A DNA stretch of 39,888 nucleotides from Candidatus Cloacimonadales bacterium (GTDB taxonomy: Bacteria; Cloacimonadota; Cloacimonadia; Cloacimonadales; TCS61), in contig JAWOEN010000036.1 of NCBI GenBank assembly GCA_046482725.1, positions 1 through 39,888 on the forward strand, given 5' to 3'. The notes below the pieces were generated by a model. That model saw only the letters and a list, made by a program, of their open reading frames with translations. It searched no databases and had not been told where the DNA came from. A program made the translations under genes and the position numbers. How positions within the stretch are numbered: position 1 is the first letter of the stretch; every line of letters starts with the position of its first letter. Below are positions 2,959 to 30,022 of this stretch, in pieces.

Positions 2959-3820
2959 AACGAACCGGCACCATACTGCAGCCTACCCCACTAGAAGTAT
3001 AACCCTGAAGATTTTGGTATTGCCATTGGCCAGATAAGAGGTGATATGGTACGGGCGCTTCCTTGACCAAGATGATTTTACCCGGCAAACAAATCTGCCC
3101 CGCATGAGTATGCCCGGACAGCATCAGATCATATTTTCGTTCTGCAGCTTCTTGATAAAACTCTGGTGAATGTGAAATTAGCATCCTGAAACCTGCCTCC
3201 TGCAGCTGAGATTCAGCCAACTCAAAATCAGCAGAATTGTAATAATGTCCATCATCCAAACCTACCACAGTAATAGATTGCTTACCCCGAAAAATTTGTA
3301 TTGATTCATTCAACAAAACCTGTACTCCCATTTTCTCCAGTTCCAAGCCCAGCTCATAATCATCATGATTGCCCAGAACAGCGTAGACAGGAGTTTTATT
3401 TACTAGTCTTGGAATCAGCCAGCGCAATTGTTTATAAGTAAAGGCAGGATTGCCAGCAACTCGGAAGCGATAGTCTCCTCCTAAAATCAAACATTCATAT
3501 TCCAAATCAGCACATCTTTGCCAAACCAGTTCAGCTAAACTCAGAAAGCCATCAATATGCAGGTCGGAGATAAAGAGAAATTTATACCCATCAAATTCTC
3601 TCGGCAATTTAGCAAAGCCCAAGCAGACATTTTGCAGCTTGATCTTCTGAGCATTTGCAAAGCCCAGATTGTAGAGCTGGCTCCAGCTTAAGATTTTACT
3701 GATCACTCTGCTCAAGGTTAGCGAATTTTCCGGATGAAATTTTTTCTTTGTCTCTCTGGTCACCAGCTTATAATGCTGGCCTATCTCAGCTAATCGCCTC
3801 TGCTGACTTCTGGGTCTCAT
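2891..3820 (-). CDS. Calcineurin-like metallophosphoesterase (YkuE-like)
   Basis: Canonical motifs are present in order: 'ISDLHIDG', 'GGDY', 'LGNHD', 'GHTHAGQ'. The start overlaps the upstream stop by 1 nt (TGATG). Confidence 0.8.
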   Translation of the reverse strand: MRPRSQQRRLAEIGQHYKLVTRETKKKFHPENSLTLSRVISKILSWSQLYNLGFANAQKIKLQNVCLGFAKLPREFDGYKFLFISDLHIDGFLSLAELVWQRCADLEYECLILGGDYRFRVAGNPAFTYKQLRWLIPRLVNKTPVYAVLGNHDDYELGLELEKMGVQVLLNESIQIFRGKQSITVVGLDDGHYYNSADFELAESQLQEAGFRMLISHSPEFYQEAAERKYDLMLSGHTHAGQICLPGKIILVKEAPVPYHLLSGQWQYQNLQGYTSSGVGCSMVPVRFNCQPEIVQIVLQRAEDPALLK

Positions 3821-5754
3821 CAGGGAAGATAAATATAACTTTCGTCGATGTTTTCAGGTAGATTATGATACCAATTTTGCTGCAAGGTGCCAGAGGATTC
3901 TGCCCACTCGGCAAAATTTCGATAAGCCCAAGTGATCTCTTTCCGCTCTTGGGGATATTGCCACTGCAGCGGGATATTCAAGGCCCAGGGTAGATTATTA
4001 TTGCTTTTATAAAATCGACCTGCTGCTGGACTAGAATTATCATCTTCAGTGCCAAACAAGCTGAGATCTGCTTTGGAGGTAGGTGGGTAGTCAGGCAGAT
4101 GTATCTCTTTGCTAATATCTCCATTTATTCGCAAAAAGGGATTGTAAGGCAATTGATAAGCCAGATCTTCCAAGACCAATGGCGTCTGCAGAGTTAGCCC
4201 AAAGCTCACACTTTGCGGAGAAAAATATTCCATACTCTCTTCTGTATTGACGAAACCGGAGCCGGGTGGGTTCATGATATCATAGGCATCATCAAAGATA
4301 TTTACAATTAAGAGTGGATTATCATATTCAAAATCTACCTGCCCCGCCAAATCAGCTATATTACTAGGATCCACCGGTAATTCCAGAGCAAAACCATTGT
4401 GATAGGCTGCTCCGATTGCTCTTACTTTGATCTGACCGATGATATCTATTAGCCTGTTGTTGGGAGTATGGATAGTTTGGAAATTATAGCCCAGCACCAG
4501 ATCGTTCATATCATAATCACCCTGGCGCGGCCAATAATCTTCGAAAGCCAGAGTTCCCCAGCTATCTTCTGCCGGGTAATAATTATCAAAAGCTCGCTGT
4601 GGATCATCAGGATAATCGTCATAAAGATCACTGATGCCATCATTATCACTGTCTTGCACAATATCCAGAGGATTGACGTTTTCGGTGCTAATCGCCTCGA
4701 TGGGGTTGGAAGTAACATAAAAAACAGCATCATTGAAATCATCGTCTCCCTCCGGCCTTCTCAAATCCTCAAAGCCGAGCAAAAATTTTCCGCTCTCTTC
4801 ATCGTGCAGCAAAACCACGTGCTGTTGATGGGCAGGATCTGGCTCGGGATTATAATCTGAGTTGGAGTAATATCTGGTCCTGGTTTCGCTCACAGAACCA
4901 TAATTCCAGCCATTGGCTACCAAAAACCAGCCGATAACCGTACCTGCTTCAAAGCTTCCCAAATAGACTTTGTCTCCCGAATGCATACCGTCGGGAAAGA
5001 TAGAGACATTGGGAAAAATTATATTATGCTCCAGTTCCGCAGGATCTGCCGGTGCACCCGAATCCAATGAATAAGTATAGTAGCCCAGACTATTCTGATA
5101 GCCGGCACCTTCCTGCACAAAAGTTATCCAAACTTCAGCATCTGCTTCCACCACAGTATTCAGCATCGAGCCAGCTTGCAAATAGTCGGGATGATAATCG
5201 GAAACCGGATAACGCTCAGGCAGCGAAGCATCGACTCGCTGCAAAAAATCCGAGCTGATATAGTCTGTCTGCATATCAATCGGTATGCCGTTAGCATCAA
5301 ATTCTGTCACATATTCAAACCCATCTCTAGAAGTATCTACTCCTACTCTTACCGAACGTTGGGACACTCCACCGATTTGCCACTCCACCTGATTATTTTC
5401 GATAGGTAAAGTTTGGGTGCGCATAAATCCCATAACGGTCAATGAATCTAAACTGGTGGGCAAATTGAGCACTGTCTTATACTCTCCCGCCTGGTTAGTA
5501 GCGCCTCGTGCTAAGATCTTGCCGCCTGATGCTGCAGGTTTATCCATCACTCGAAAAAAGATATGGGGAACCGGTAAATTCCCATTATCCAAAAATGTGA
5601 TTTTTACCTCCACCTCTTGCACAGTTTCATAGCCAAACTGCTCAGAAATCGCCAACTCATCCATCATATCTTTGCTGGATGGATTTTTCTCTTCCAAAAG
5701 ATCGCAACCTAATAAAGATAGAATTATCAAAATCATTATCATACTATTTTTCAT
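3820..5754 (-). CDS. Lipoprotein with DUF4114-like and LruC-like domains
   Basis: The signal peptide has a lipobox ('ILSLLGC'). 'GFEDLRRPEGDDDFNDAVFYV' is a DUF4114-type motif and 'EDYWPRQGDYDMNDLVLGY' is an LruC-type motif. AAGGAG precedes the ATG. Confidence 0.55.
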   Translation of the reverse strand: MKNSMIMILIILSLLGCDLLEEKNPSSKDMMDELAISEQFGYETVQEVEVKITFLDNGNLPVPHIFFRVMDKPAASGGKILARGATNQAGEYKTVLNLPTSLDSLTVMGFMRTQTLPIENNQVEWQIGGVSQRSVRVGVDTSRDGFEYVTEFDANGIPIDMQTDYISSDFLQRVDASLPERYPVSDYHPDYLQAGSMLNTVVEADAEVWITFVQEGAGYQNSLGYYTYSLDSGAPADPAELEHNIIFPNVSIFPDGMHSGDKVYLGSFEAGTVIGWFLVANGWNYGSVSETRTRYYSNSDYNPEPDPAHQQHVVLLHDEESGKFLLGFEDLRRPEGDDDFNDAVFYVTSNPIEAISTENVNPLDIVQDSDNDGISDLYDDYPDDPQRAFDNYYPAEDSWGTLAFEDYWPRQGDYDMNDLVLGYNFQTIHTPNNRLIDIIGQIKVRAIGAAYHNGFALELPVDPSNIADLAGQVDFEYDNPLLIVNIFDDAYDIMNPPGSGFVNTEESMEYFSPQSVSFGLTLQTPLVLEDLAYQLPYNPFLRINGDISKEIHLPDYPPTSKADLSLFGTEDDNSSPAAGRFYKSNNNLPWALNIPLQWQYPQERKEITWAYRNFAEWAESSGTLQQNWYHNLPENIDESYIYLP

Positions 5755-10432: not shown

Positions 10433-10915
10433 CTAAAAATATCTGAAGATCTGTAATGGTAAACGTAGAAAATTTGATATTATCTCTTTCTGAGGCCAGA
10501 AATCTGAAAGATGACGATCCGGAAAAATATCGATCCCCAGAGCAGATTTTAGCAGATAAAGCAGATAAAATACCAAGATGAAAATCAAGGCGGCTAGAAC
10601 CACCACAAATATCGTATTGAGTAAGATTGCCAGCAAGGTCTGAGCAGCACCGCTCTTTTTCAATCGCTTTGTATCACGGCGGTCCACGCCAAATTGCAAA
10701 ACAAAATACCACTTTTTTATCAACCAGAAACGAAATTTGAGATCTACCAGATGCTTTCCTCGCAAAGGTAAGACCCGGTTTAGAAAACGTGAAAGTTCAT
10801 TACTTTGCTGATGATCTAAGCTCTGCCTGATTTGCGGATTCATCTGAGCGATATACTCGTCGATCATCTGCTGGCGCTCAGTTTTCTCAGGAATATTTTT
10901 TTTCAGATCAGACAT
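10433..10915 (-). CDS. Small membrane protein of unknown function
   Basis: 160 aa with a hydrophilic N-terminal half and one long hydrophobic segment ('LLAILLNTIFVVVLAALIFILVFYLLYLL'). It overlaps the upstream gene by 8 nt, which implies translational coupling. I recognise no family. Confidence 0.5.
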   Translation of the reverse strand: MSDLKKNIPEKTERQQMIDEYIAQMNPQIRQSLDHQQSNELSRFLNRVLPLRGKHLVDLKFRFWLIKKWYFVLQFGVDRRDTKRLKKSGAAQTLLAILLNTIFVVVLAALIFILVFYLLYLLKSALGIDIFPDRHLSDFWPQKEIISNFLRLPLQIFRYF

Positions 10916-12257
10916 TATCCGCCACCTCTTGCCGCCGATAGATTTTCCGCATAGCTGCTATCAGAGCAAAGATCAGCATCAATTGATAAAAATTATTAGT
11001 TTGACGCAAGACCCATTCCAACGTGGATTCCAGATAAATGCCAATCAAACCGCCCATCAATCCAATAGCCACAAATTGAGCTTGCTGATTTTTTAGTCGC
11101 CGCATATTCTGATAATTCATTCCCAGAAAGTAGAGCAAAAACAGAAGATAAACCAGCAAATTGTGCCAGCCGGTTTCTGCTGCAATGCTGAGGTAAGCAG
11201 TTTCTACCAAGCCATTTTTCTCTTCATAATCATCCGGAGGTAATTTTCCGTCATTCAGATAAGGATAGATCTCGCTACCATACTCATAAGGGGGATTGAC
11301 CTTTACCCCGAAATTGTTCAAACCAATACCCAAAACTTTGTCATTAGCCATTTTCACAGCAGTTTTTGCCAAGATTACTCGCGTCATGGCCGATTCTTCT
11401 GCTGCAGTTTCAAAGCGCTCGACAATAGAATCCATCGCCTTCAATAATCCTGCTAAAGCTACCAAAAGCAAAATCAAAGTGATTCCCACTTTCTTGGCAG
11501 TGAAACCTTGGGTAAATGAGAAAAACCAGACGATCGCGCAGGCAACCACAAAGAAAAACATACCGGCCCGTGAAAGTGTGGAAACCACAGAGATAGCTGC
11601 CATTCCTAAGACAAAAAGCCAATACCAGAGCTTGACGTCACGGCGATTGAGTAGATAGCCAAAAACCAGTGAGCCAAAAACTATCAGATACATTACCAAA
11701 GAATTCTGGTGCGGGAATGGTCCGGAATTTTGAAAAGTGCCATCGATATATTTCTGTTTTAGCACAACCAAACCGATATAGATAATAATGATACCAATTA
11801 TCTTCATCAGAAGTTCGATCTTTTGCCAACTGTTTATATAGTTATAGATTACCCAAAAATAGGCATACATGCGTATCATTTTCCAAATCTCGAAATAGGA
11901 ATGTACCACGTAGCCCGGTGCCGAATTGAAAATTGAGATCCAGCAAAAAAAGAAAAACAGAAAGTAGAGTCCACTTCCCGGGGGCTTTTGTGGCAAATTA
12001 TTTACCGTTTTGCGTTTTAAAATCAATTGCCAAATGATCAGCATGGCAATATCTACCAAGCCTACCTCGAATCCTCGGGAAGTTCCTCGGAAAAATTCCC
12101 GCGAAACAAAATTGATCGTTACAGTCTCCACAGTGAAAAAGATCATCAGAAAAAATACAAATTTCTCGATCTTCTCATTTTTGGCAGCCCAGCTGGTTCC
12201 CAGTGGTACTCCCACAAACAAAGCGGCAAAGAAAACAACGTATTTGAGCAGACCCAT
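10908..12257 (-). CDS. O-antigen ligase / Wzy-like polysaccharide polymerase family membrane protein
   Basis: Polytopic (around 10-12 TM helices). It has a central 'TLSRAGMFFF' Wzy_C-type motif and a large loop near the C-terminus, and it lies in a glycan locus. Confidence 0.65.
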   Translation of the reverse strand: MGLLKYVVFFAALFVGVPLGTSWAAKNEKIEKFVFFLMIFFTVETVTINFVSREFFRGTSRGFEVGLVDIAMLIIWQLILKRKTVNNLPQKPPGSGLYFLFFFFCWISIFNSAPGYVVHSYFEIWKMIRMYAYFWVIYNYINSWQKIELLMKIIGIIIIYIGLVVLKQKYIDGTFQNSGPFPHQNSLVMYLIVFGSLVFGYLLNRRDVKLWYWLFVLGMAAISVVSTLSRAGMFFFVVACAIVWFFSFTQGFTAKKVGITLILLLVALAGLLKAMDSIVERFETAAEESAMTRVILAKTAVKMANDKVLGIGLNNFGVKVNPPYEYGSEIYPYLNDGKLPPDDYEEKNGLVETAYLSIAAETGWHNLLVYLLFLLYFLGMNYQNMRRLKNQQAQFVAIGLMGGLIGIYLESTLEWVLRQTNNFYQLMLIFALIAAMRKIYRRQEVADNV

Positions 12258-12259
12258 AA

Positions 12260-13312
12260 TTATTGGCCGCCAACCTGCTTGTAGATTTCGTTCATCATCC
12301 AGCCTGTCTGTATTGCTTCCAAGCTCGGCATGATCAGGCTCAGCACCTTATTCCACGAGGCAATAGGAGAATCCGGTACATAAACTATGTCGTTGGGTTT
12401 AAGTGGAAAATCTTGAGCTTCGCCAGCCAAAATTTTGGCTGTGTCTATCTTAAATACGCGCGGATGACTGAGTCCACCTCGCACTACCAAAACTTCCGAT
12501 CTGGCATTATCGGTGAAACCACGAGCAAAAGTAATCACCTGCATCAAGGTCATCGATTCTTTATAAAGAAAATGCCAAGGCGTGCCGACTGCACCCAATA
12601 CATAAACTTCGCGATTTACACTGGAAGGAATATAGATATAATCTCCATCCAAAATCGGAATATTATGCAACATATTGCCTTCCCTGATCAATTCCTGAAA
12701 ATCGATCGGTAAAATTCTATTATTCCTGATCATATAGCTGCGTTCCAGATCGGCCAATTCGATCGTGTTGTTTTGAAAAATTCCTGAGGATAAGCCGCCT
12801 GCTTCTGCGATCACATCCACCACGCGCATGCCACCTTTTATCTCATAAACTCCCGAATTTACTACCTTGCCCACGATCGTTACATTAGCACCGGTCAATT
12901 GATAGGGGATCATCGAGATTTTGGGATAATTGATATATTCGGCCAGCCTTTCCTCGATCAATCCGGTAGCTGCTGCTACCGTGAGACCCGAAACCAAGAT
13001 CTCACCAATCAATTTGAATGAGATGGTTCCATCCGGCTTCACGATGATTCCTTCTGTACTTAAGTCAGCTTCATCATAAACAAAAATATTAAACCTGTCG
13101 CCTGCACTGATGCGATAAGTCTCAGTATCAACTTGCTGCAGATTTTGCAGCTCTTTTATCTTTTCCAGATCTTCCTGCTGCTCGCTGCGCATCTCTTCCA
13201 AATATTGTGGTTCTGCCTCGATCATCTCATCCGAGATTATTTTGTGACTCGAGCAAGCCTGGACAAAAATTATCAGGTAAATAAAAAAAATAAGCTTTCC
13301 TATTTTCATCAA
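12260..13312 (-). CDS. Polysaccharide export outer-membrane lipoprotein (Wza-like; Poly_export plus SLBB domains)
   Basis: Lipobox 'VQACSS'. 'YRISAGDRFNIFVY...IIVKPDGTISFKLIGEILVSGLT' is the Poly_export signature. Repeated SLBB-like segments follow ('VTIVGKVVNSGVYE', 'VYVLGAVGTPWHF'). Confidence 0.8.
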   Translation of the reverse strand: MMKIGKLIFFIYLIIFVQACSSHKIISDEMIEAEPQYLEEMRSEQQEDLEKIKELQNLQQVDTETYRISAGDRFNIFVYDEADLSTEGIIVKPDGTISFKLIGEILVSGLTVAAATGLIEERLAEYINYPKISMIPYQLTGANVTIVGKVVNSGVYEIKGGMRVVDVIAEAGGLSSGIFQNNTIELADLERSYMIRNNRILPIDFQELIREGNMLHNIPILDGDYIYIPSSVNREVYVLGAVGTPWHFLYKESMTLMQVITFARGFTDNARSEVLVVRGGLSHPRVFKIDTAKILAGEAQDFPLKPNDIVYVPDSPIASWNKVLSLIMPSLEAIQTGWMMNEIYKQVGGQ

Positions 13313-13327
13313 AATCTCCCAACTTTT

Positions 13328-15322
13328 TTACTGTTTGAAATAGGGTTTCTCTGAATGATTCAAAACCCCTACTATCTGCACTGAGCTGTTTTGTTTTAGA
13401 AATTTTACTGCTTTGGCCAATTTGAAGCGATCTGAATGGCGGAAGCGAGCTACAAAGGTCAAAAGATCAGAGGCAGAAGCAATAGTTTTGAACAGCTGCA
13501 AATTATAATCCACATTGAACAACTCCCAAAATATCAGATCATATCCTTTTTGGGTTGCCAGATACTTTTCTACATTTCCCGGGCTCAGCACTTTGGTAAA
13601 AGTCTGTTCATCCGATATAAAATAGGCAATATGGAAACTATCAGTAAGCTGATAGACTGCCTGGGCATCGGTTTGCTTGCCATAAAGCTGATCGTTGATC
13701 TGATACTGAGCAATCTCCTCATCACTTTCACTTACACTTTCGATCCACAGAACCCGCTTATTTTGGGAAAGAGCCAGCATTACCAGCTCTTGAATCACAA
13801 AAGTGGCACCGCAAGAGAAGCGATCTTTACCCACAGCAATTGTAGCTGTTCCAGCGGAAGGCAGGCTTTGCAGCAATTGCCCGAACAAAATCTGCAGCTT
13901 GGAATAAAATACCGGATTCGCCACATTTTCTTTATTGGGTATCTCTTCCAAACACTTGATCTGCAACACTTGCTCGAAATCGTAGGAAGATTTGACAGTA
14001 AAATCCAGCAATTCCTTCAGAGCAAAAAAGATCAGCAAGAGCAGAAAAGCAAAAAAGCCTGCTGCCAAAGCAATAATTTTGCGCCCGGAGGCTTCGGGAT
14101 ATTTGGGAGCTACAGCCGCTTCCAAAATCTCAAAATCACTGAGGTTAGATTCCATCGCAATTTTCGCCTCATTGGCGCGCTCTTTTACTTTGGTTAGCAT
14201 CTCTTGCAAAGTGTTTTGCTCGCTGACGATATCATAATATTGCCGTTCGATCGGCGATAAAACTTTCAGCTCTTCTTTTAGCAAAGCAATTTTATTGTGA
14301 TAATCTTTCACCCTTTTCTCTGTGGCAACCATCTCATTTTCATAACGATTTTTTTCCAAGATCATACTCTGGCGAATAGTGTTGGCACCATAAGTCATCG
14401 AGTCGGGTATCTTCTCTTCTGCAGCTCCGGTAGAGATCAAATTCTCCAATGAAGCAATCTCATCTCGCAACCTGAGAATCTTGGGATTTCGCTCTGTATA
14501 TTTTTGTTGTAAAATAGCTAATTCTTGCTGCAAATTTTTTAATTTACTTTCTCGAGTACCCGAAACTGTAGCTGTAAGCTCCACAGTTTGTGGCAAACCA
14601 GCGATTCTTTCTGAAATATCGGAAATCTTGGTTTGAAGCTCAGAGATTAGCAGCTGTGCATTTAGCATATCCAATTCCAAAATTTTCAGGTTATCATATT
14701 TGTTTTGAACTTCTTTTTCCAAAGATAAGATCTCTCGCTCGGCCTGAAATTGATCTAGTTCCTGCTCTATTTGGGTAATTTTCTGCTGATATATCTCGAT
14801 CTGTTGAAGATAATAATCATAGATTTTGCCACTGGCGGAATTGATAATCTCCACATAACTTTGGATAAAGACGACCGCCAGATTATTAGCGATCTTGACG
14901 GCTGTCTCTCGCTCTTGGTGTTTTGCCCTGATATTGATCAAATTGGAGCGCCTGCCGCGTGAGACATTTATCGTTCCATACATTTTGGGTGGGGTCAGCT
15001 CCAACTGCAGAGAATCGATCACTGATTGCAGATTTTTACGAGTCTTAATCGATTGAAGAATTGTATCAAAATCCATTTCGGAATACAGATATGGTACACT
15101 GGTATTGGAACTGAGATTTTTGGTATGACGGATCAAGACAGATTGTGCCTGCCAAGTATCGTCAATCGCAATTTTGGCCAGCACAAAGGCAATTATCGTA
15201 GCAATCAGCGCAATGATAATGATAAACGGAGCTTTTTTCGCCAAGCTCAAGATCAGCACACGCTTATCAAATTTTAAGTAGTCGTTTGTCTGCACTGCGG
15301 CAGTTTGATTATTATTATCCAT
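13328..15322 (-). CDS. Polysaccharide co-polymerase (Wzc/GumC-like chain-length determinant) with a degenerate C-terminal P-loop-like domain
   Basis: An N-terminal TM helix is followed by a long coiled-coil periplasmic region, a second TM helix ('IIALAAGFFAFLLLLIFFAL') and a roughly 190-aa cytoplasmic domain. That domain reads 'ATIAVGKDRFSCGATF' where a BY-kinase Walker A (GxGK[ST]) would be expected. There is no C-terminal Tyr cluster. Confidence 0.7.
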   Translation of the reverse strand: MDNNNQTAAVQTNDYLKFDKRVLILSLAKKAPFIIIIALIATIIAFVLAKIAIDDTWQAQSVLIRHTKNLSSNTSVPYLYSEMDFDTILQSIKTRKNLQSVIDSLQLELTPPKMYGTINVSRGRRSNLINIRAKHQERETAVKIANNLAVVFIQSYVEIINSASGKIYDYYLQQIEIYQQKITQIEQELDQFQAEREILSLEKEVQNKYDNLKILELDMLNAQLLISELQTKISDISERIAGLPQTVELTATVSGTRESKLKNLQQELAILQQKYTERNPKILRLRDEIASLENLISTGAAEEKIPDSMTYGANTIRQSMILEKNRYENEMVATEKRVKDYHNKIALLKEELKVLSPIERQYYDIVSEQNTLQEMLTKVKERANEAKIAMESNLSDFEILEAAVAPKYPEASGRKIIALAAGFFAFLLLLIFFALKELLDFTVKSSYDFEQVLQIKCLEEIPNKENVANPVFYSKLQILFGQLLQSLPSAGTATIAVGKDRFSCGATFVIQELVMLALSQNKRVLWIESVSESDEEIAQYQINDQLYGKQTDAQAVYQLTDSFHIAYFISDEQTFTKVLSPGNVEKYLATQKGYDLIFWELFNVDYNLQLFKTIASASDLLTFVARFRHSDRFKLAKAVKFLKQNSSVQIVGVLNHSEKPYFKQ

Positions 15323-15333
15323 TCAAATCCTTA

Positions 15334-16761
15334 TTAACTAAAAAATCCATTCTGAAAGTATTTGCGCACGGAGAAAAGACGATTAAAACTGAAAAGAAAG
15401 ATAATCTTCAGCATCAATCGAATCGAGCTATTGTAATTGTAAAAAATCTCATGTAGCAAAAAATTTCCATCATCAAAATTGCTGGCATAGACTTCCGAAT
15501 AGCTTATTACTGCCGGATGGTAATTATCCAGCTTATCCAAGAATATTCTTCCATAACTATCAGCTGGAATCGGACGATTTCCCACCAAGGCAAGTTTGCC
15601 CGATAGTACCTGGAGCAAGAGGGGATATTTATCTAGAGAAAAACGGATAAACCAGCGATTGCAAAATTTGGATTTTTTGATGGTTACCAAAGGCAAGCTA
15701 AATTTATTGCCATTTAGATCCTGATAAAACTCGGACTGAGAAAAATTTATTTTGGAGATCGGCACCAAGGCAAGCCCCAAAGCATAGGGAATCAAGCCCA
15801 AGATCAAACCTAAAAACGCCAATATTTTTTGGATAAATCGATAAAGTGAATTTTCCAAAACTCGATTTATTTTTGAGATAAAAAATTTATCTGCGATCTG
15901 TAAATGTTCGCCACTGGCAGCATCGATTAGATAGTTTTTATAGACGATTTTATTGTTGATCTCGAGATTACTGCCCAGATAGGTTTGATCGTAGACGATG
16001 CTGCCACTTACTGTCGTGGAAGTATCGATGATTACATTATTACCAATCACAGAATTTGCCAATATTTGGCAGTTATCATACATCTGCACATCATTCCCGA
16101 TCATAAAGGGTTTTTCGAAATTACTATGATGGGCATTGAAAGCTACATTTTTCCCGATGAATTCGCCTGACTTGTTACTATAGCCCGGCAGAAAATAATT
16201 ATCTGGCTGCTGAGTCAGAATTCGCTGATTGATCTGATAATAATCTTGCACCGAATCCAGAGCTGAGATGGATAATTGAGGAAACAAATTATCCTCTGCC
16301 AGAAAATCTATTTCGCTAAACTTGCTGCCGGCCGGAACAAAATAGATATCTTCAGCTGCTCCTCCTCGCATCGAGGCGGCTTCTGAGAGGGGTAGATAAG
16401 CAGAATCAAGCTGATCTTTATGATAGTTTAGAAAAAACAAACCATCGATTATCAATAGATCATCAGCTTGGCAAAAGCCTGAATTTTTTAGAAGAACTTT
16501 CGAGAGAGTATCTCCCGCTTTTCCCATCACATAAGAGATATTCAATCCCTTTTGCGGGCCACTACTGAAGTAGTGCTCCATCTCAGCTGTCGGGTCACTC
16601 TTGACGATACGAATCTCAGCAATGCCGTTTAGAGCGCAAAAATCTATAAAGTATTCTAAAAGCGGTTTATTTAAAATCCGCAAAAAATGGGGAAAAAGTC
16701 CTGGCATCACATCTTTTAGCCAGCTACTCTCAGCATCCACACAGTTGATCAGGCATTTCAT
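15334..16761 (-). CDS. Fusion protein: NTP-transferase-like domain, left-handed beta-helix (hexapeptide) domain and monotopic phosphoglycosyl-transferase-like domain; catalytic motifs appear degenerate
   Basis: The N-terminal 'FPHFLRILNKPLLEYFIDFCALNGIAEIRIV' resembles sugar-1-P nucleotidyltransferases, but the GxGTRL loop reads 'VDAESSWL'. Hexapeptide repeats are present ('IGKNVA','IGNDVQ','IGNNVI','LGSNLE'). A hydrophobic helix with a central Pro follows ('ILAFLGLILGLIPYALGLALV'). 'RFSLDKYPLLLQVLSGKLALVGNRP' parallels the PGT motif 'SxDELPQLxNVLxGxMSxVGPRP' with DE changed to DK. Confidence 0.6.
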   Translation of the reverse strand: MKCLINCVDAESSWLKDVMPGLFPHFLRILNKPLLEYFIDFCALNGIAEIRIVKSDPTAEMEHYFSSGPQKGLNISYVMGKAGDTLSKVLLKNSGFCQADDLLIIDGLFFLNYHKDQLDSAYLPLSEAASMRGGAAEDIYFVPAGSKFSEIDFLAEDNLFPQLSISALDSVQDYYQINQRILTQQPDNYFLPGYSNKSGEFIGKNVAFNAHHSNFEKPFMIGNDVQMYDNCQILANSVIGNNVIIDTSTTVSGSIVYDQTYLGSNLEINNKIVYKNYLIDAASGEHLQIADKFFISKINRVLENSLYRFIQKILAFLGLILGLIPYALGLALVPISKINFSQSEFYQDLNGNKFSLPLVTIKKSKFCNRWFIRFSLDKYPLLLQVLSGKLALVGNRPIPADSYGRIFLDKLDNYHPAVISYSEVYASNFDDGNFLLHEIFYNYNSSIRLMLKIIFLFSFNRLFSVRKYFQNGFFS

Positions 16762-16778: not shown

Positions 16779-17114
16779 TTAGGCAAAGCTGGCGATTGCA
16801 GCATCCAGATCATCAAAAACATCAAAAACCTTATAAGCTCGGGTTATCTCGAAAAGCATGCGCGGCTTGGGCTGCAAATTGGCAATATAGAGATCACCAT
16901 TTTCTTTGGTGGCATTCTTCAGACAGCTCAGCAGTGCACCCAATCCGCTGCTGTCGATAAATTCCAATTCCGAGCAATCAAACACGAAATTCTTATACTC
17001 TTGCAAATAGTTTAAAAACTCTTTTTTTAATTTTGCTTCGCTAGAGCTATCCACTCTGCCCACGATCTTGACGATTCCTACTTGATCATTTGCTTTTTCC
17101 AAATAAATTTCCAT
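16779..17114 (-). CDS. STAS-domain anti-sigma-factor-antagonist-like protein (SpoIIAA/RsbV/SypA-like)
   Basis: 111 aa. 'LEFIDSSGLGALLS' contains the conserved DSSGLG phospho-serine motif, and the size is typical of the family. GGAGGTG precedes the ATG. Confidence 0.85.
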   Translation of the reverse strand: MEIYLEKANDQVGIVKIVGRVDSSSEAKLKKEFLNYLQEYKNFVFDCSELEFIDSSGLGALLSCLKNATKENGDLYIANLQPKPRMLFEITRAYKVFDVFDDLDAAIASFA

Positions 17115-17148: not shown

Positions 17149-17868
17149 TTAATATGCACCTTTTCCACTGAAGACTGCTCCTACAGTGCGTAAAAGTAAT
17201 GAGATATCGCTCCAGATACCGTTGTATTCTCTGATATATTGTTTATCCAGCTCCACTTGCTGTTCGAAAGGGATATCGCTTCTGCCACTCACTTGCCAGA
17301 TGCAAGTAATGCCGGGAATCACATCCAATCTTTTATGATCCTCGATCGAATATTCTGCTACTTCTCGCGGCAGAGGCGGTCTGGGACCAACCAAGCTCAT
17401 ATCTCCTTTCAGTACATTCAGAAGCTGAGGTAATTCGTCAATACTAAATCTTCTGATAATGCGACCTACCTTGGTTATCCGCGGATCTCGTTTCATCTTA
17501 AAGATCACGCCATCCCCAGATTCATTTTGCTGCAAAAGCTGATCTTTCAGCTTATCTGCATTCATCACCATCGAACGAAATTTATAAAAATCAAATTCTC
17601 GCCCATTCTTACCTACTCTGGTTTGAGAATAAAAAATTGTACCAGGATCTTCCAGATAAATCGCAATCGCAGTAAAGAGAAAGATAGGGGAAAATAGGAT
17701 CAGAAAAATTAGTGAAAAGATCAGATCCATCGAGCGTTTTAGCAAATAGGAAGATTTCAGGACAAACTCAAAAGTTGCCTGACGCTTTCTCATTCGCTTC
17801 ATCTGCTTTTTATTTGATCTTTTACCAAAACTCTGCGCAAAATCATTTAGCTCTTTTTTATCTTTCAT
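17149..17868 (-). CDS. Undecaprenyl-phosphate sugar-phosphate transferase (small monotopic PGT, PglC/WbaP C-terminal-domain family)
   Basis: 'LKRSMDLIFSLIFLILFSPIFLF', 'YKFRSM', 'RRFSIDELPQLLNVLKGDMSLVGPRPPLPRE' and 'PGITCIWQVSGRS' form a complete bacterial sugar transferase signature with the DE dyad intact. Confidence 0.85.
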   Translation of the reverse strand: MKDKKELNDFAQSFGKRSNKKQMKRMRKRQATFEFVLKSSYLLKRSMDLIFSLIFLILFSPIFLFTAIAIYLEDPGTIFYSQTRVGKNGREFDFYKFRSMVMNADKLKDQLLQQNESGDGVIFKMKRDPRITKVGRIIRRFSIDELPQLLNVLKGDMSLVGPRPPLPREVAEYSIEDHKRLDVIPGITCIWQVSGRSDIPFEQQVELDKQYIREYNGIWSDISLLLRTVGAVFSGKGAY

Positions 17869-18632
17869 AGCAGCCTCAATTTTTTTTTATCACTCTTTTT
17901 TTTCCATTTCAGCAAACGGATGATAAACAAAGGATTTCCGATAATATAGCGCCGCCACATACGAGCTGGTTCTTGCAACAATCGAAAGACCCATTCGATA
18001 CCCAATCTCCTCATCCAGAACGGAGCCCGTGGGATATTGCCGGAATAAAAATCGAAAAGTCCACCTACTCCCAGCTGAATCGGGCAGTTGATCTCGGCAA
18101 AATGCTGAGCTATCCATTTCTCCTGAAAAGGCGCTCCAAAAGCTACCAATAATATATCTGCCCGGCTGGCATTGAGCTCAGCGATAACTTCTGCACTTTC
18201 TAAGTCGCGCTCAAAATAGCCATGCCGAACCCCGACAATTTGCAGCTTCGGATATTTTCTCAACAAATTTTCTCGCATCTTTTCGGCTATGCCCGGCCTG
18301 GCTCCCAATAAAAAAAGTCGCCGCTCATGTCGCTCTGAATATTCGCAAAGCAGAGGCAATAGATCGGTTCCATTGACATTATCCACTATCTGGGTTTTGA
18401 CTATTTTGCTGGCATAACGCACACCACTGCCATCTCCCAAAATATAAGAAGTAGATTGCAAAACTCGCTTGTACTCTTCATCCAAATAGAGCTTATTGAA
18501 ACAATCCGCATTTACAAAGAAAAATTTTGCCTTCGCTTGCGCGGCAATTATCTGCTCAATCTCAGCAATCGTATCAGACTTTGTCAGATTCAGTACATTC
18601 AGATCGAACAAATTTATTACAGGATATTTCAT
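17865..18632 (-). CDS. WecB/TagA/CpsF-family glycosyltransferase (GT26)
   Basis: 'FFFVNADCFN', 'ILGDGSGVRYASK', 'LFLLGARPGIAEK', 'LLVAFGAPFQEKW' and 'GVGGLFDFYSGNIPRAP.WMRRLGIEWVFRLLQEP' are characteristic of GT26. Confidence 0.85.
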   Translation of the reverse strand: MKYPVINLFDLNVLNLTKSDTIAEIEQIIAAQAKAKFFFVNADCFNKLYLDEEYKRVLQSTSYILGDGSGVRYASKIVKTQIVDNVNGTDLLPLLCEYSERHERRLFLLGARPGIAEKMRENLLRKYPKLQIVGVRHGYFERDLESAEVIAELNASRADILLVAFGAPFQEKWIAQHFAEINCPIQLGVGGLFDFYSGNIPRAPFWMRRLGIEWVFRLLQEPARMWRRYIIGNPLFIIRLLKWKKKSDKKKLRLL

Positions 18633-20671: not shown

Positions 20672-21485
20672 TTTCTTCCTTCTTTGATAGCAGCTCACTC
20701 ATCCAGATAGTCTCATGTGCTTCTAAAAAGTCCAAGATTCTCTGGAACGAGATAAATTTGTCGCATAAATAGAGTGTGATGGGATGGATAATCAGGTTGG
20801 AGATCACGCCGTTTTTCTCATTAGCGGCCAATTGCTGCAGCACCAGGTCAGTCCACTCTTCCACATAATAAGATTCAGCGCCAAAATCATCTGACCAATT
20901 ATAGCGCTTTTGCCACTTTTCGATCCACTGGGGAGTGCGTTCAGCGTGGATCAGATGTTCATGATCCGGGATAATATTGAGGGGAAAATTGTAGATACCA
21001 CTAGGATGTTTGATCAAGCCATTGGACTCTTTTTTCACACCATCCGAGCAGATTTTGATGCCGCCAGCGTAGAGTATAGTTTCAGTATTTTTGCCATGCA
21101 TATACATATGATTTCGCCAAACCTGTAAATCCCGATTGGTTTTTTGTTTGATAATATGAGCAGTTTTGCGCAGATCGCGGCGCTGATACCAGCGCGGGCC
21201 ATTGTAGCTGTCGATCAATTTATTCCAAATGCGATGCCACAGAGTATGCTCAAAGCAATCGTAATTGTGCCCGCCCAATTCCACATTATCACTTTGGCAA
21301 ATTTGTTGCAAATCATCCCACTCTTCGGCAAAACTTTTACCCGAGATGAAGTAAGTAACTTTCACCTTGGCTTGCTGCAGCATTTTATTATAGATCTGGG
21401 CGCACTGAATTTCGCTGATCTCGCAATGCTGCTGATTTCCCGTGTTCAAGGAAGCGTGATGGATATCGCCGGTAAGACAGATCAT
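20661..21485 (-). CDS. Hypothetical protein, possibly a divergent polysaccharide deacetylase-like (NodB/CE4-related) enzyme
   Basis: It has His-rich motifs spaced like NodB motifs: 'LTGDIHH' versus TFDDG, 'ELGGHNYDCFEH' versus H[ST]xxH, and 'VWRNHMY' versus RxPY. The resemblance is weak and was judged by eye only. Confidence 0.35.
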   Translation of the reverse strand: MICLTGDIHHASLNTGNQQHCEISEIQCAQIYNKMLQQAKVKVTYFISGKSFAEEWDDLQQICQSDNVELGGHNYDCFEHTLWHRIWNKLIDSYNGPRWYQRRDLRKTAHIIKQKTNRDLQVWRNHMYMHGKNTETILYAGGIKICSDGVKKESNGLIKHPSGIYNFPLNIIPDHEHLIHAERTPQWIEKWQKRYNWSDDFGAESYYVEEWTDLVLQQLAANEKNGVISNLIIHPITLYLCDKFISFQRILDFLEAHETIWMSELLSKKEENDE

Positions 21486-22711
21486 TGGGGGCCTCCTTTT
21501 TCATCCAAAGCTATCTTATATTTTTTTAGTGTATTGACAAAGTTGAGGTCTCCATACTTGCCCCAATAGCGCAAATATGCTCGACGAAGCGCTGCAAAAT
21601 CTGCTGGAGAATCCAAGAAGTCTTGAGCAATCTCCTTAAATTTTGGCTCAGATAATTTATAGGCAAAAAGAGGGAACAAGATCGGTAATACACCGGCTTC
21701 GCCCAAAGATTTGAAGCCCAGTTTTGCTTTGAAGTTTCCGCTTTTCAAAGTTTTTTGAGTTTTCAATAAATGATAGATTTTTTTAGCAAAGGGTTTGGCT
21801 TGCCAGAATTGCTCTCCCCAAGCGTGTTGAAATGCTTTACTGGGATATTGAGACCAGATGATAGATTGCTGCTGCAAGCGCTTGCTTTCGCAGAGCAAAA
21901 AGATTTCCTGAAAATGTTCGCGCAATTCTTCTGTCCAGGCGCCAAGATCTTTGGCCAAATATTTGGGATAATCGGGTTGGAAACGAAAATTCATCGCCTC
22001 ATCATAGATCGCTTTGAATTTCTCATTTACATCAGATCTTTGCTGCATCTTCTGCTGTTTTTGCAGATAGCTCCAGCTATAATCATCCAAGAAAAAAAGC
22101 AGTGTATCGCCGTAGCCGATAATTGCTTTGATAATATGCTTCACGATCAATCTTTTTAGTTTCTCATCCAATTGAGCTTTCTCTAAGATCAGGTCATTGA
22201 TGATCATCAAAGTTCCCCGATTTACCAAGAGATTTCGGGCATCCCAAGCTGGAATTTTATCTAAAGAAAAATGTCTGAGTGCCGGCACAAAGTCAGCATT
22301 ACCATAAATTGTTTTATGACCAAAACGCATATCATACCAGATGATGCGGCAAGCAGCAGATTGCAATTTCCGGGCAGAAATCACGCTTAGATCAATCCCA
22401 ATATTCAGTTTTTTTGATTTCGCTTCCAGCTTCAGCATCAATGCTTTTTTTATGCGATCATTCTCCGATTCGCTCTGATTATTACTCAATAGTATAAAAT
22501 CAAAATTGTTATGAGGTTTTTCCATACCGGCTTCTATCACCACACCGCCTTCTCCGCGTCCATAACCACCTAGCATTATCAGTGCTTCATAATCAGATTC
22601 CGGCAAATCTTCGATGATGGTAGTTGCTATCTCTGCTACCATATCTCGGATCAATTGCTCTACTTTTTCTGTGCCACGCACGGTAAATTTCCCCCAGGCT
22701 GCTTTATCCAT
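21482..22711 (-). CDS. Hypothetical protein with an N-terminal polymerase-beta-type nucleotidyltransferase-like motif
   Basis: 'ALIMLGGYGRGEGGV....NNFDFILL' resembles the G[SG]x9-13DxD minimal NTase signature (compare the GlnD/GlnE-type 'GGYGRxE'). The C-terminal ~250 aa look helical and match no family I recognise. The gene overlaps both neighbours, by 4 nt and by 1 nt. Confidence 0.4.
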   Translation of the reverse strand: MDKAAWGKFTVRGTEKVEQLIRDMVAEIATTIIEDLPESDYEALIMLGGYGRGEGGVVIEAGMEKPHNNFDFILLSNNQSESENDRIKKALMLKLEAKSKKLNIGIDLSVISARKLQSAACRIIWYDMRFGHKTIYGNADFVPALRHFSLDKIPAWDARNLLVNRGTLMIINDLILEKAQLDEKLKRLIVKHIIKAIIGYGDTLLFFLDDYSWSYLQKQQKMQQRSDVNEKFKAIYDEAMNFRFQPDYPKYLAKDLGAWTEELREHFQEIFLLCESKRLQQQSIIWSQYPSKAFQHAWGEQFWQAKPFAKKIYHLLKTQKTLKSGNFKAKLGFKSLGEAGVLPILFPLFAYKLSEPKFKEIAQDFLDSPADFAALRRAYLRYWGKYGDLNFVNTLKKYKIALDEKGGPQ

Positions 22712-26291: not shown

Positions 26292-29200
26292 TTACACCTT
26301 CTCTTTTATTTTTATCGTGGTTTCATTCATCTCGCCCAGCCGCTTCAGGCTTATTTCAGCAGCGATAGAATAGATGATCTGCATGCCAAAACCTCCACTC
26401 CGCTCAATATCAGCATTTAGACAATCACAATTTCTCTCCGGCAATTCCCACTCTCTTCCCTTGTCCCAGAAAGTGAGAAAAATATCTTGATTGATAACCA
26501 GTTCCAATCCGATGACTTCTGCCCGATCTTGTTGGATTCCATGTCGAATAATATTGCTCAGATATTCGTTGATCAGCAGCTCTACTCGATCTGCCAAAGG
26601 CTCATTCTGCAAAGTATCTTTGACGATTTCATTGCATTCTGCTCCCAGATCGGCAATGTTTTCCAAATTCGGTTTTAGCGTAAAAATCTTGCGAAATTCC
26701 GGTTTGAGCTTCTCGACTAATTTTTTGAATGTCAGCAGCGTAAAATCATCTGTGCTGATATCATAATTCTGCTCTTTCAAAATAGCCAAAAAATTCTCCG
26801 GCAGTGAAATAGCCGAGGTAAAATCTCCTTGCTGTTCGATAAATTTGTGGAAACCGGCTAAACCAAACTGCTCGCCTGCTGCATTTTCGCATTCGAATAT
26901 ACCATCTGTGTAGAGCATAAATGCTTTCTCTGCAGAAAATTCCACCACACCTTCTGCCTCTGGTAAATAGTCAAAATCTTGGCTCCAACCCACCGGAATC
27001 GAGCCGCCTTCATCGATAATTTTTACCTCTTTCTGCACCAAATCATATTGGATCAGGGGAGGATGCCCCGCACTGAAATAGCGGATTTCCTCTTGTTCAT
27101 TGTCGATAATGCAAAGCAAAATGGTCAGATAATTTTCATGAAAAAGATCTGCTGCCAAGATCTTATTTAGTTTCTGCAAAATAAAGCTGGGCGATAGCTG
27201 CTCTTCTGGGCTGGAAACGATCATGTTGATGATAGATTTCACCGCAGTCATCATCAGGGCAGCTTGCACTCCATGCCCCGAGATATCCCCGATGTAAACC
27301 AAGGTTTTATTGGCAGAAAGCTTGATGATATCAAAGAGATCGCCACCGATGAGACTGGATGGTTTGTAGGTGGAAGAAAAAATTATCTCATCTTGTTTGG
27401 TCAGCCAATCCGGCAAAAGATATTGTTGCACTGAAGAGGCAATATCCAGCTCTTTCAGAAGAGAATTATACATTTGATTCAGATAATCTTCATTGGCTTG
27501 GCGGTTGATGGCAGCTCCGATAGAATCTGCTACCATGGTAAGTGTCTCCACTTCCATCTGGCTCCATTTTCTTTGCTCTTCTATCATGTCAAAGCCGATA
27601 AAACCCCAGAAAATCTCATTGGCAAAAATCGGCACCAACAAAATGCTACTCACCTGATTTCCTGCCAAAAATTTATTGTCTGGAGCTATCTCCTGCACAT
27701 TGCCATAGATCGATGCTTTATCGAGCAATCTGCCCAACCAATCAGCAAAACCCAAATCACTGTAGCTGTAGACAGTATCTGCCTCCAAGCTCACCGAAAG
27801 TTTTTGAGCCCGCTCGGTTTGCCAACTGTGAGCATATTTCATCAGCATCGAGCCTTCAGCACTTTCCATATTTTCAAAGAGATAAACGCGATCTACCTCC
27901 AAAACTTTGCCATACTTTTCCAAAATAAGCTTGATGCTCTCCTGCCAATCTTTTTTGGTAAGGAAGAGATTGGATGAAACCGATAAAGCTTGCAGAATCT
28001 TATCGCGTTGAGCTAAGTTCTTTTCTGTGTTTTGTCTACTCTTGATATTAACAATAATCTGAGAAAAAAGTTTTAGGAGATTTACTTCTTTATTGGAATA
28101 AGTATTTTGTTTTTTCACCGAATCAAATCCCACAAAGCCGAAGCATTTCTGGCCTGCCATAAGGGGGATGGTGATCAAACTTTTTACCTGCTGCGGCTCC
28201 AAGATCTTTCTTACCGAGTCAGATTTATCCAACTCAAAGATATCGGGAATATATAGGATTTCGCCTTGGCTATGTGCTTCTACCCATTGGGGCATAGCAC
28301 TAAAAGGCACCCGCTGCAATTCATCTATCTGCGCAGATATTCCTTTCGCACACCATTCATAGGTGTTAATGCAGATTTCTTTATCCCAGTCATAATCAAA
28401 AATATAAGCACGATCTGCTTGGGCAAAAGCACCCAATTCTCGCAGGCCATTATTGGTAGCTGAATCGATATCTTTTAAATCTAGATTGATATACTTGGTT
28501 GAAATGTTCATCAGAATATTTTGCAAACCACTTTGATACTGAAGTTCCGCTTCTGCCTGCTTGCGCTTGCTAATATCTTCCAAAACTCCATCAAAATAGA
28601 TAATGCTCTTATTCTGATAGATCGCCTTGGAATTGATCGCTATCCAAAAATGTGTGCCATCTTTCTTCTGCATCTCTGCTTCAAAACGCTGGACCTGACC
28701 TTTATCGATCAATTTCTTTAGCAAGCTCTCACGCTGCTGCGGTTTTACATAAAAATCCTTCACATTCTTCTGCATCAGCTCGGACATAGAATCATAGCCA
28801 AACATCTTGACCATGGCCGGATTGGCTGAAAGTAGATGCCCCTGCAGAGTAGAGCGATAAATCCCGATGGGAATATTGGTTTGCAAAGTGCGATATTGCT
28901 CTTCGCTCTTGGCCAATTTTTCTGCTGCCAATCTGCGCTCTGTGACATCTTCAAAGCTGACAATGGCTCCGTAAAATTCCTCATTTTCCAATAAATCTAT
29001 GCTGTATAAGATCTTGACCTGAGCTCCTCGCTTGCTATAAAGCTCATCTTCCTGCTCAAATTTGGCAGTATTCAGATCAGCAAAATCTACCTCAAAGATA
29101 TCAGTCTGAAATACTTCCTGAGGACGTTTGCCCAGCATCTCTTGCAAGCTATAGCCGGTTATTTTCTCAGCTCGCACATTCCAGCTGGTGATCCGATTGT

Positions 29201-29891: not shown

Positions 29892-29958
29892 GGGCGATCT
29901 CCTTGGTACCATAATTTGCTATTGCCGCTTTTATCTGTAAAGATTTTTTTCTGATCTA

Positions 29959-29989: not shown

Positions 29990-30022
29990 TGCTTAACGCA
30001 ATTAACTAAAAAAAAGTTCAGG

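Follow-up and report, generated by a model that had tools for sequence, protein, structure and literature searches.

What a protein with the folds of two sugar-pathway enzymes and, apparently, the active site of neither could be doing in a polysaccharide gene cluster is the question raised by an open reading frame (ORF) of Candidatus Cloacimonadales bacterium. The ORF, referred to here as the target, lies on the minus strand at 15334-16761 (475 aa and a stop codon) of contig JAWOEN010000036.1 (assembly GCA_046482725.1), positions 1 to 39,888 of which, the window, were analysed. The original prediction, made from the DNA and its ORF translations, was of a GlmU-like protein fused to a domain resembling the monotopic phosphoglycosyl transferases (PGTs), with the catalytic signatures of both apparently broken. 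The reading that we favour, at a probability of roughly 0.55, is that the target is a membrane-tethered pseudoenzyme that would serve as the output or adaptor protein of a partner switch gating Wzx/Wzy-type polysaccharide synthesis, its partners being assigned from their operon positions.

The ORF, which is preceded by a Shine-Dalgarno sequence (GAGGGAG) approximately 8 nt 5′ of the ATG, encodes in order a degenerate sugar-1-phosphate nucleotidyltransferase (NT) fold (aa 1-190, 16192-16761), a short left-handed beta-helix (LbH) of the eIF2B/GMPPB type (aa 191-292, 15886-16191), a low-confidence linker (aa 293-299, 15865-15885), a hydrophobic helix (aa 300-336, 15754-15864) that is the counterpart of the re-entrant membrane helix of PglC, and a degenerate monotopic PGT core (aa 337-475, 15337-15753), all on the minus strand. 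In single-sequence profile scans the three domains were weak and coherent: NTP_transferase/rmlA_long at residues 24-105 (Pfam PF00483 E=0.02, 14.9 bits with a cut-off of 21.2; TIGR01208 rmlA_long E=6e-10), PF25084 LbH_EIF2B/Hexapep over residues 209-281 (E=1.2e-9) and Bac_transf over residues 369-456, corresponding to positions 81-172 of the 179 in the profile (E=4e-6; 26.9 bits, just short of the cut-off of 27). A family profile built from 87 full-length homologues matched the NT-LbH UDP-glucose pyrophosphorylase 8x7s (E=7e-26), eIF2B epsilon (E=7e-15) and RmlA structures (E approximately 1e-10), and it matched PglC (8e37, E=7e-9) over the PGT fold in its entirety, N-terminal membrane helix included (chain residues 5-182). 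The similarity of the C-terminal part to PGTs is upheld by a profile of that domain alone (E=3.6e-11 to PglC residues 4-181) and by hhalign against the intact PGT encoded nearby at 17149-17868 (probability 94 %, E=1.4e-7).

An alignment-based AlphaFold2 (AF2) model (predicted local distance difference test 89, predicted template modelling score 0.75) consists of an alpha/beta domain and a beta-helix followed, after the low-confidence linker (293-299), by a long helix (300-331) and a confidently modelled alpha/beta core. Its best Foldseek match was again 8x7s (tlr0611, E=4.6e-15), and the further matches to the N-terminal two-thirds were ST0452, eIF2B gamma/epsilon, GMPPA/GMPPB, VTC1-KJC2 and ADP-glucose pyrophosphorylases. 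All three of the parts proposed originally are statistically supported by these comparisons; a Rossmann-like NT fold is present, and so is a monotopic PGT fold made up of a putative re-entrant helix, with a helix-breaking Pro, and a soluble core. The Pro that had been noted in the middle of the helix is Pro325 (15787-15789), and this position is Pro in 78 of the 87 relatives. The label GlmU-like lacks precision, as the N-terminal two-thirds are closest to the NT plus short LbH of the RmlA-long/CugP/GMPPB/eIF2B proteins and not to GlmU proper. The LbH of GlmU proper is an acetyltransferase; judged on model scores, TIGR01173 glmU gave 15 bits against a cut-off of 367 and the best LbH model was the non-catalytic eIF2B type PF25084. 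No NCBIfam family model reaches its cut-off on the target, and the names carried by its relatives in the databases are 'NDP-sugar synthase', 'sugar transferase', 'glycosyltransferase' and 'hypothetical protein', the first three of which are probably wrong as functional annotations.

When the target and the 87 relatives were aligned with canonical NT-LbH enzymes, 'CVDAESSW' (aa 7-14, 16720-16743, minus strand) was found at the site of the GGxGTR nucleotide-binding loop, which reads 'AGGKGIR' in the canonical enzymes. None of the 87 relatives has a G-rich loop, and 82 of them have the Trp of the target (W14). The catalytic Lys of 'PKP' is replaced by His25 in the target and by Tyr in most relatives and is absent from all 87, the LGTGGA, (G)D, EKP and WxDxGT motifs have no counterpart in the target, and approximately 35 residues are deleted from the sugar-binding half of the fold, so that the degeneration extends well beyond the replaced loop originally described. 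A set of polar residues in the NT fold (N31, K32, E36, D40 and N93) is invariant or nearly so, as are P33 in N31-K32-P33 and the motif NKPLLEY (16651-16671).

Profile, hidden Markov model (HMM) and hhalign alignments all place SLDKYP of the target on SIDELP/SLDELP of active PGTs, with Asp377-Lys378 (15628-15633, minus strand) at the position of the Asp-Glu dyad, and the DE that was said to read DK does so. The possibility that the catalytic residues were merely shifted finds no support in any of these alignments, which likewise offer no G-rich loop. In PglC the dyad (Asp93-Glu94) is the centre of the active site and PRP is the nucleotide-binding motif (PMC10186338). LVGNRP (15571-15588, minus strand) stands in place of (V/I)GPRP, leaving N-R-P at the PRP site, where the family has N (75/87), then R, K, H or Q, then L (49) or P (16). 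The PGITG block reads PAVIS in the target (15502-15516, minus strand), as reported, and PG[VAI][FY]S in the family. The KFR[ST]M block is not conserved in the target, again as reported; the counterpart then proposed for it, VTIKK, does not hold, as KFKTM of PglC aligns to LNGNKFS (349-355), and VTIKK pairs with FKMKRDP in the neighbouring PGT. The first residue of the dyad, which we take to be the nucleophile of PglC, is Asp in 72 of the 87 relatives, and approximately 17 % of the family have H, N, E, G, Y or other residues there; the second is Lys in 79 and Arg in five more. Among 199 retrieved relatives carrying both the NT-LbH and the PGT-like parts an Asp-Glu dyad was never seen (DK in 119, DR in 30, HK in 11, NK in six, and others), and among the retrieved proteins it was confined to canonical PGTs, in which GPRP and PGxTG are present as well. 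To judge from these alignments, both enzyme folds of the target are devoid of their catalytic signatures and the protein falls outside the active nucleotidyltransferases, GlmU and the active monotopic PGTs; we consider it very probable that it is non-catalytic. The conserved Asp-(Lys/Arg) pair may have retained binding of phosphate or of a lipid carrier without catalysis.

The losses characterise an entire family. Full-length homologues (29-77 % identity) were found in Cloacimonadota, Lentisphaerota, Armatimonadota, Desulfobulbales, Planctomycetota, Verrucomicrobiota, Myxococcota and Delongbacteria, and the relatives that have both folds and no Asp-Glu span approximately eight phyla. A genome scan, with one genome per species, gave 75 loci at E <= 1e-17 from Cloacimonadota, Victivallales/Lentisphaeria, Armatimonadota, Desulfobulbales (including Desulfopila and Desulfotalea), Sedimentisphaeraceae, Verrucomicrobiota, Myxococcota, Delongbacteria and Spirochaetia, with Victivallis vadensis DSM 14823, Desulfogranum japonicum DSM 18378 and Desulforhopalus vacuolatus DSM 9700 among the strains; the closest loci (56-64 % identity) are in metagenome-assembled genomes of Cloacimonadota. 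An exhaustive search with an HMM of the PGT-like domain retrieved 248 proteins at E<=1e-10, with canonical PGTs entering the list from approximately E=1e-17; the best-scoring 150 of the 248 have mostly the 440-490 aa architecture and the shorter ones are mostly fragment-like. Because the 199 relatives share both the architecture and the loss of Asp-Glu across many phyla, the catalytic loss is not recent decay, and close homologues with canonical motifs, which would have pointed to it, were not found (0/199 with D-E, 0/87 with a G-rich loop). Nor is there a catalytically intact NT-LbH-PGT ancestor among the 199, and the derivation from a sugar-activation and priming fusion that was originally put forward gains no backing from them. 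Mean pairwise identity is 48 % for the LbH, which is the best kept, 37 % for the NT fold and 31 % for the PGT-like core, which evolves fastest, and every domain is under constraint.

The genes around the target bear on its role. From approximately 2.9 to 29.9 kb all genes of the window are on the minus strand and tightly packed. Immediately upstream of the target is a gene for a single-domain STAS protein (16779-17114, 111 aa; STAS domain E=5e-20) with a phosphorylatable Ser, Ser55, in DSSGLG; its stop codon is 17 nt before the start of the target, the stop codon of which is 11 nt before the start of a Wzz/polysaccharide co-polymerase (PCP)-like gene. Next upstream is a small monotopic PGT of 239 aa (17149-17868), the catalytic motifs of which were said to be intact and are (Bac_transf E=1.7e-65; SIDELP, LVGPRP and PGITC); it is presumed to be the initiating enzyme of the pathway. 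A WecG/TagA-family glycosyltransferase (17865-18632) is the conserved first gene of the WecG, PGT, STAS, target block. Further upstream, at 26292-29912, is a gene for a sensor protein of 1206 aa with PAS-PAS-GAF, a SpoIIE domain (PP2C phosphatase, aa 868-1063) and HATPase_c_2 (an RsbW-like serine kinase, aa 1082-1200), and this protein is presumed to be both the writer and the eraser of the STAS phosphorylation. It heads the polysaccharide cluster and looks like SypE, with PAS/GAF inputs instead of a receiver domain. Downstream of the target are genes for the Wzz/PCP-like protein (13328-15322, 664 aa; best model the XrtA-system chain-length determinant, E=7e-34), a Wza-like exporter (12260-13312) and a Wzy_C-like protein (10908-12257), followed in minus-strand order by phosphomannose isomerase, an OmpA/PEGA protein and a Wzx-like flippase. 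Overall, this is an exopolysaccharide cluster of the Wzx/Wzy type that includes its own partner-switching set.

Genes of the family are always part of polysaccharide clusters. The window proteins were compared with 80 related loci using tblastn, and in nearly all of them the order is WecG, PGT, STAS, target, in most cases a gene like that for a 409-aa protein at 21482-22711, then Wzz, Wza and Wzy. Upstream sequence of at least 2.6 kb is available for 55 loci; STAS adjoins the target homologue in 45 of these, a PGT is within 2.6 kb of it in 50 and both are there in 42, and the Ser of DS[ST]G is kept in all 62 neighbouring STAS proteins. At least 12 related loci have a phosphatase/kinase module upstream; the Victivallaceae loci have their STAS gene 7-8 kb upstream of the target homologue, beside a SpoIIE/kinase gene. 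Two loci that have no STAS or PGT gene (L013 and L032) are rearranged upstream, with Lon, ComEC, an IS200-like gene and SPFH there, which makes both uninformative. Variations in the number of STAS genes were also seen: one Cloacimonadales genome (L048) has three in tandem directly upstream of the target homologue (approximately 1.2 kb upstream), and Desulfobulbales and Myxococcota loci have one on each side of it. In Desulfogranum japonicum the gene upstream of STAS (L085:2791-4887) encodes a 698-aa fusion of weak Bac_transf, WecG and Bac_transf, and in L086 (2563-4634) two separate proteins correspond to it, one of 274 aa with the weak Bac_transf and one of 406 aa with WecG-Bac_transf; the weak Bac_transf is a second degenerate PGT-like element in the Desulfobulbales clusters.

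The connection to partner switching is seen most directly in relatives that have dispensed with the C-terminal part. One protein, P0088 (339 aa), consists of NT-LbH only, and on its contig the order is STAS, P0088 and a standalone HATPase_c_2 kinase, with Stealth-type capsule genes and a sigma54 response regulator nearby. A search seeded with P0088 revealed a short subfamily (316-347 aa) lacking the PGT-like domain, and in all five contigs (that of P0088 and four more) there is an operon of STAS, NT-LbH and an RsbW-like kinase, to which one contig adds a response regulator-SpoIIE phosphatase. The short and long forms have 40 strongly conserved positions of the NT-LbH part in common, and a weak homology can be detected between the standalone kinases and the C-terminal kinase domain of the window sensor protein. 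Because the short subfamily has no PGT-like domain and sits in a STAS-kinase operon, the link to STAS and kinase runs through the NT-LbH module and not through the PGT-like domain. The arrangement is also found with longer proteins: in the cultured Desulfogranum japonicum a full-length homologue (X) lies in the order STAS, X, STAS, HATPase_c_2, with response regulator-SpoIIE and Wza genes further downstream, and an intermediate-length member is found in the order STAS, X, a 73-aa ORF and kinase. Genes of this family occupy the output-protein slot of a partner-switching operon, the slot held by the sigma factor in operons of the rsbV-rsbW-sigB type, and it is highly likely that the target belongs to a partner-switching module. 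The operon of the short subfamily is always beside a divergently transcribed gene for a sigma54-dependent response regulator (L081-L084, L087), and often near genes for a Stealth CR1-CR3 capsule phosphotransferase, a GDP-mannose-dehydratase-type epimerase, HAD and phosphoribosyltransferase proteins; the polysaccharide chemistry is different and the switch is the same.

Taken with the family-wide loss of motifs, this operon context supports, with the caveats given below, what was originally proposed, namely a pseudoenzyme or scaffold that would receive the STAS signal, regulate the true PGT, or both; the STAS part of the proposal is strengthened by the PP2C phosphatase and RsbW-like kinase of the cluster and by the five short-subfamily operons. 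In the mechanism that we envisage, the PAS/GAF sensor protein would set the phosphorylation state of Ser55 of the STAS protein, and unphosphorylated STAS would free or activate the NT-LbH module, by engaging either that module directly or the kinase domain. The dead PGT domain would keep the target at the cytoplasmic leaflet and close to the small active PGT, with which it might form a PGT-like:PGT pseudo-heterodimer mimicking the homodimer of the large PGTs (Lg-PGTs), and the switch would gate the first membrane-committed step, the transfer of a sugar-1-phosphate to undecaprenyl phosphate. That the small PGT is what the target acts on is put forward tentatively, at somewhat less than even odds. 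A more specific version, in which the NT-LbH pseudoenzyme is the equivalent of the sigma factor in a post-translational control of polysaccharide synthesis, sequestered by the RsbW-like kinase and released by dephosphorylated STAS, whereupon the dead PGT domain docks on the small PGT in such a pseudo-heterodimer and switches on the first transfer, is in our view rather unlikely.

Proteins with tandem Bac_transf (monotopic PGT) domains in one chain were also encountered (P0226, P0207, P0223, P0204, P0203, P0233, P0215, P0195, P0197, P0220 and P0221), and Pfam found two Bac_transf stretches in 10 of the 10 scanned, that is, all but P0220. In several of them the N-terminal dyad is degenerate (HLDKLP, ALDNLP, GLYNYP or SLADLP) and the C-terminal domain is canonical (SLDELP, GPRP). 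Such tandem degenerate and intact Bac_transf proteins indicate that a dead and a live PGT core can function next to each other; no description of this architecture was found in the literature searched.

Several known systems share features with the target, and four of them (All4160, EpsW-EpsZ, WbaP and GMPPA), together with the tandem proteins, lend plausibility to the individual steps of the mechanism. The monotopic PGT classes described in the literature searched are the small, the large and the bifunctional (active) ones, and in the bifunctional class (Bi-PGT; PMC11626204) a second catalytic domain is fused to the PGT, in Neisseria PglB an acetyltransferase. As in the target, a soluble beta-helix-containing domain of the sugar pathway is N-terminal to a re-entrant helix and a monotopic PGT core; there both halves are active, whereas in the target both lack catalytic residues and the N-terminal part is an NT fold with a short non-catalytic LbH and not an acetyltransferase. 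The Lg-PGT WbaP is a homodimer with a non-catalytic domain that senses UMP/nucleotide, regulates the enzyme and mediates dimerisation. In WbaP, too, the re-entrant helix follows a cytoplasmic module that is Rossmann-like and non-catalytic, but this CoA_binding_3-like domain is in cis with an active core, whereas the target combines NT-LbH with a dead core and the active PGT is separate. The response regulator EpsW activates the PGT EpsZ by promoting its dimer, a further case of a PGT regulated via a dimer-promoting protein-protein interaction. Loss of nucleotidyltransferase activity in the same NT plus short LbH fold class, as defined by Foldseek, is known from GMPPA, KONJAC and eIF2B gamma/epsilon, and GMPPA, a dead paralogue that regulates GMPPB by binding, still binds GDP-mannose. 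These are soluble eukaryotic proteins, however, none of them carries a membrane PGT fold or has a connection to STAS/partner switching, and the NT pocket of the target is far more degraded.

Partner switches without a sigma factor are also known. In Anabaena All4160 a STAS domain is fused to an active PGT and phosphorylation inhibits; in the cyanobacterial fusions All4160 and XssP the phosphorylation of STAS (by the RsbW-type kinase Alr3423, with HenR as the SpoIIE phosphatase) controls a protein of polysaccharide synthesis with the monotopic PGT fold, but here the STAS protein is separate and a dead NT-LbH-PGT-like protein is interposed. The syp locus of Vibrio fischeri is a polysaccharide locus that likewise has a single-domain STAS protein, SypA, which acts post-transcriptionally on an unknown target, and a bifunctional RsbW-like kinase/PP2C phosphatase, SypE, with a sigma54 regulator nearby; the kinase/phosphatase of the window differs in carrying PAS/GAF sensors instead of a receiver domain. 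In gene content (OmpA-like, Wza, Wzz, Wzy_C-like, flippase, PGT and GT4 genes) syp presumably resembles the window cluster, and to our knowledge no NT-LbH-PGT-like gene has been described in it. With RsbV-RsbW-SigB and SpoIIAA-SpoIIAB-SigF the shared elements are a STAS antagonist, an RsbW-like kinase, an output protein and PP2C phosphatase input, and the differences are that the output is an NT-LbH pseudoenzyme instead of a sigma factor and that the order is STAS, output, kinase. Functionally, the closest are the dead NT-LbH regulatory paralogues, the Lg-PGT accessory domain and the non-sigma outputs of partner switches. As originally stated, we know of no described example of the architecture: none was found in the literature searched, which did not cover the 2021 PNAS sequence-similarity-network paper on monotopic PGT fusions, and no paper there pairs 'phosphoglycosyl transferase' with 'pseudoenzyme'. 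The folds and the logic of the switch are known, and the combination and role are undescribed.

A number of observations weigh against the reading favoured here. The tightest synteny of the target is with Wzz-Wza-Wzy and not with the PGT, and gene order cannot tell which of STAS, kinase, PGT and Wzz is the direct partner. In a mirror-tree/partial Mantel analysis (33 loci, seven genes) the raw correlations were all 0.71-0.94, and the partial ones were low and pointed to no particular partner: 0.30 for the PGT-like half and STAS, 0.37 and 0.25 for the NT-LbH half and Wza or Wzz, respectively, 0.39 for STAS and the PGT, and 0.47 for STAS and Wzz. No Rosetta-stone fusion to STAS was found, all 52 close relatives of the cluster STAS protein being standalone proteins of 66-124 aa. 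The conserved D-[K/R] signifies selection at the former active site and could mean residual or altered chemistry, and the short subfamily, which lacks the PGT-like domain and lies beside Stealth-type capsule genes, indicates that the effector need not be a PGT.

The first of these points raises the question of whether the target serves, as adaptor or regulator, the machinery of polymerisation and export instead (Wzz/PCP, Wza and the Wzy-like protein), for instance by pairing with the PCP in the cytoplasm and regulating it, as the bacterial tyrosine kinase (BY-kinase) domain does in Wzc-type systems, with STAS control still possible. The order target, (21482-22711-like gene), Wzz, Wza, Wzy is the most invariant one and persists where no PGT/STAS is nearby (L009-L012, L013, L032), only 11 nt separate the target from Wzz, the 200-aa C-terminal cytoplasmic domain of the Wzz-like protein has no detectable kinase family match, and the NT-LbH half tracks Wza and Wzz best in the partial Mantel analysis. 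We nevertheless consider this explanation unlikely, as the absence of a PGT from L013 is uninformative given the upstream rearrangement (an IS200-like gene and unrelated genes), the Desulfobulbales loci keep PGT, STAS and target together with no adjacent Wzz homologue, the short subfamily has neither Wzz nor Wza neighbours, and a PGT-like domain is a more natural partner for a PGT or for undecaprenyl-phosphate-linked intermediates. An allosteric metabolite sensor, with the NT fold binding an NDP-sugar or nucleotide and D-[K/R] binding phosphate or a lipid carrier, would let the levels of precursor or product act back on the pathway, in the manner of GMPPA and the DUF of WbaP, and STAS would be an additional input or unrelated. 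Such a role would fit the existence of dead product-sensing paralogues in the same fold class, the UMP-sensing accessory domain of the Lg-PGTs, the near invariance of N31, K32, E36, D40 and N93 and the conservation of D377 and K/R378. It is still less probable than a role in export, since nearly all of the canonical NT ligand-contact motifs have been lost together with the ~35 residues of the sugar half, the family has not kept the PRP nucleotide-binding motif of the PGT fold, and a sensor role leaves unexplained why the short subfamily is obligatorily in a STAS, X, kinase operon.

Retention of the dyad Asp in 72 of the 87 relatives, next to a residue that is almost always basic (K in 79, R in five), together with the preserved PGT fold and membrane helix, could also be the mark of an enzyme with altered chemistry, such as a metal-independent phosphotransferase or a hydrolase of undecaprenyl-diphosphate-linked sugars using Asp and Lys/Arg. 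That approximately 17 % of the family do without the Asp, that the KFR[ST]M, PRP and PGxTG blocks are all degraded, that the PGT-like half evolves fastest and is dispensed with by the short subfamily, and that an intact PGT is encoded two genes away make this quite improbable. Finally, the single-sequence Pfam scores, all of which are below the curated cut-offs, would fit a functionless, recently decayed pseudogene-like copy or an assembly or annotation artefact. This is refuted by the intact reading frame with its Shine-Dalgarno sequence, by the at least 199 relatives that share architecture and substitutions across many phyla, by the conserved synteny and by the confidence of the AF2 model.

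If the pseudoenzyme reading is correct, the family would add a pseudoenzyme class to the monotopic PGT superfamily, and if the docking of the dead PGT domain on the small PGT is also correct, the target would become the first pseudo-PGT and, for STAS proteins of the SypA type, the first molecular target to be defined. Gating of the first membrane-committed step of polysaccharide synthesis is only now emerging as a theme (EpsW-EpsZ, the WbaP DUF, CapM phosphorylation and All4160), and the family, found in at least eight phyla, is a concrete and testable candidate for the receiver of the STAS proteins of polysaccharide loci, with Desulfogranum japonicum, Desulforhopalus vacuolatus and Victivallis vadensis as cultured carriers.

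Among the remaining genes of the window, those between the sensor gene and the WecG/TagA gene encode several GT4/GT2 glycosyltransferases, a polysaccharide deacetylase and the 409-aa protein (21482-22711, minus strand), which is soluble and has no match in Pfam, NCBIfam or the PDB. This protein includes 'GGYGRGEGG...NFDFILL', which is like the motif of Pol-beta/GlnD-type nucleotidyltransferases with the first Asp replaced by Asn, and its homologues are directly 3′ of the target in most other loci (e.g. L013:11449-12594), so the gene may belong to the same module as the target. The C-terminal cytoplasmic domain of approximately 200 aa of the Wzz-like protein (13328-13930) likewise has no Pfam or PDB match and no kinase family match; it holds 'GKDRFSCGAT', possibly a degenerate Walker-A motif, and could be a dead BY-kinase domain. 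A role in anti-phage defence was considered and rejected, the PADLOC models giving no match for the target, the STAS protein, the sensor protein or the 21482 gene product. At the distal end of the polysaccharide cluster is a gene for a 644-aa DUF4114 and DUF4842 protein (3820-5754, minus strand). Outside the cluster, an ORF of 680 aa on the plus strand (32817-34859) with no Pfam match even at E<=10 lies between the ribonucleotide reductase and DUF7033 genes. The G+C content is 0.47 at 30001-32000 and approximately 0.41 elsewhere; the rise coincides with the gene for a class II ribonucleotide reductase with a TSCPD domain (30023-32278) and is probably a composition effect of a conserved gene.

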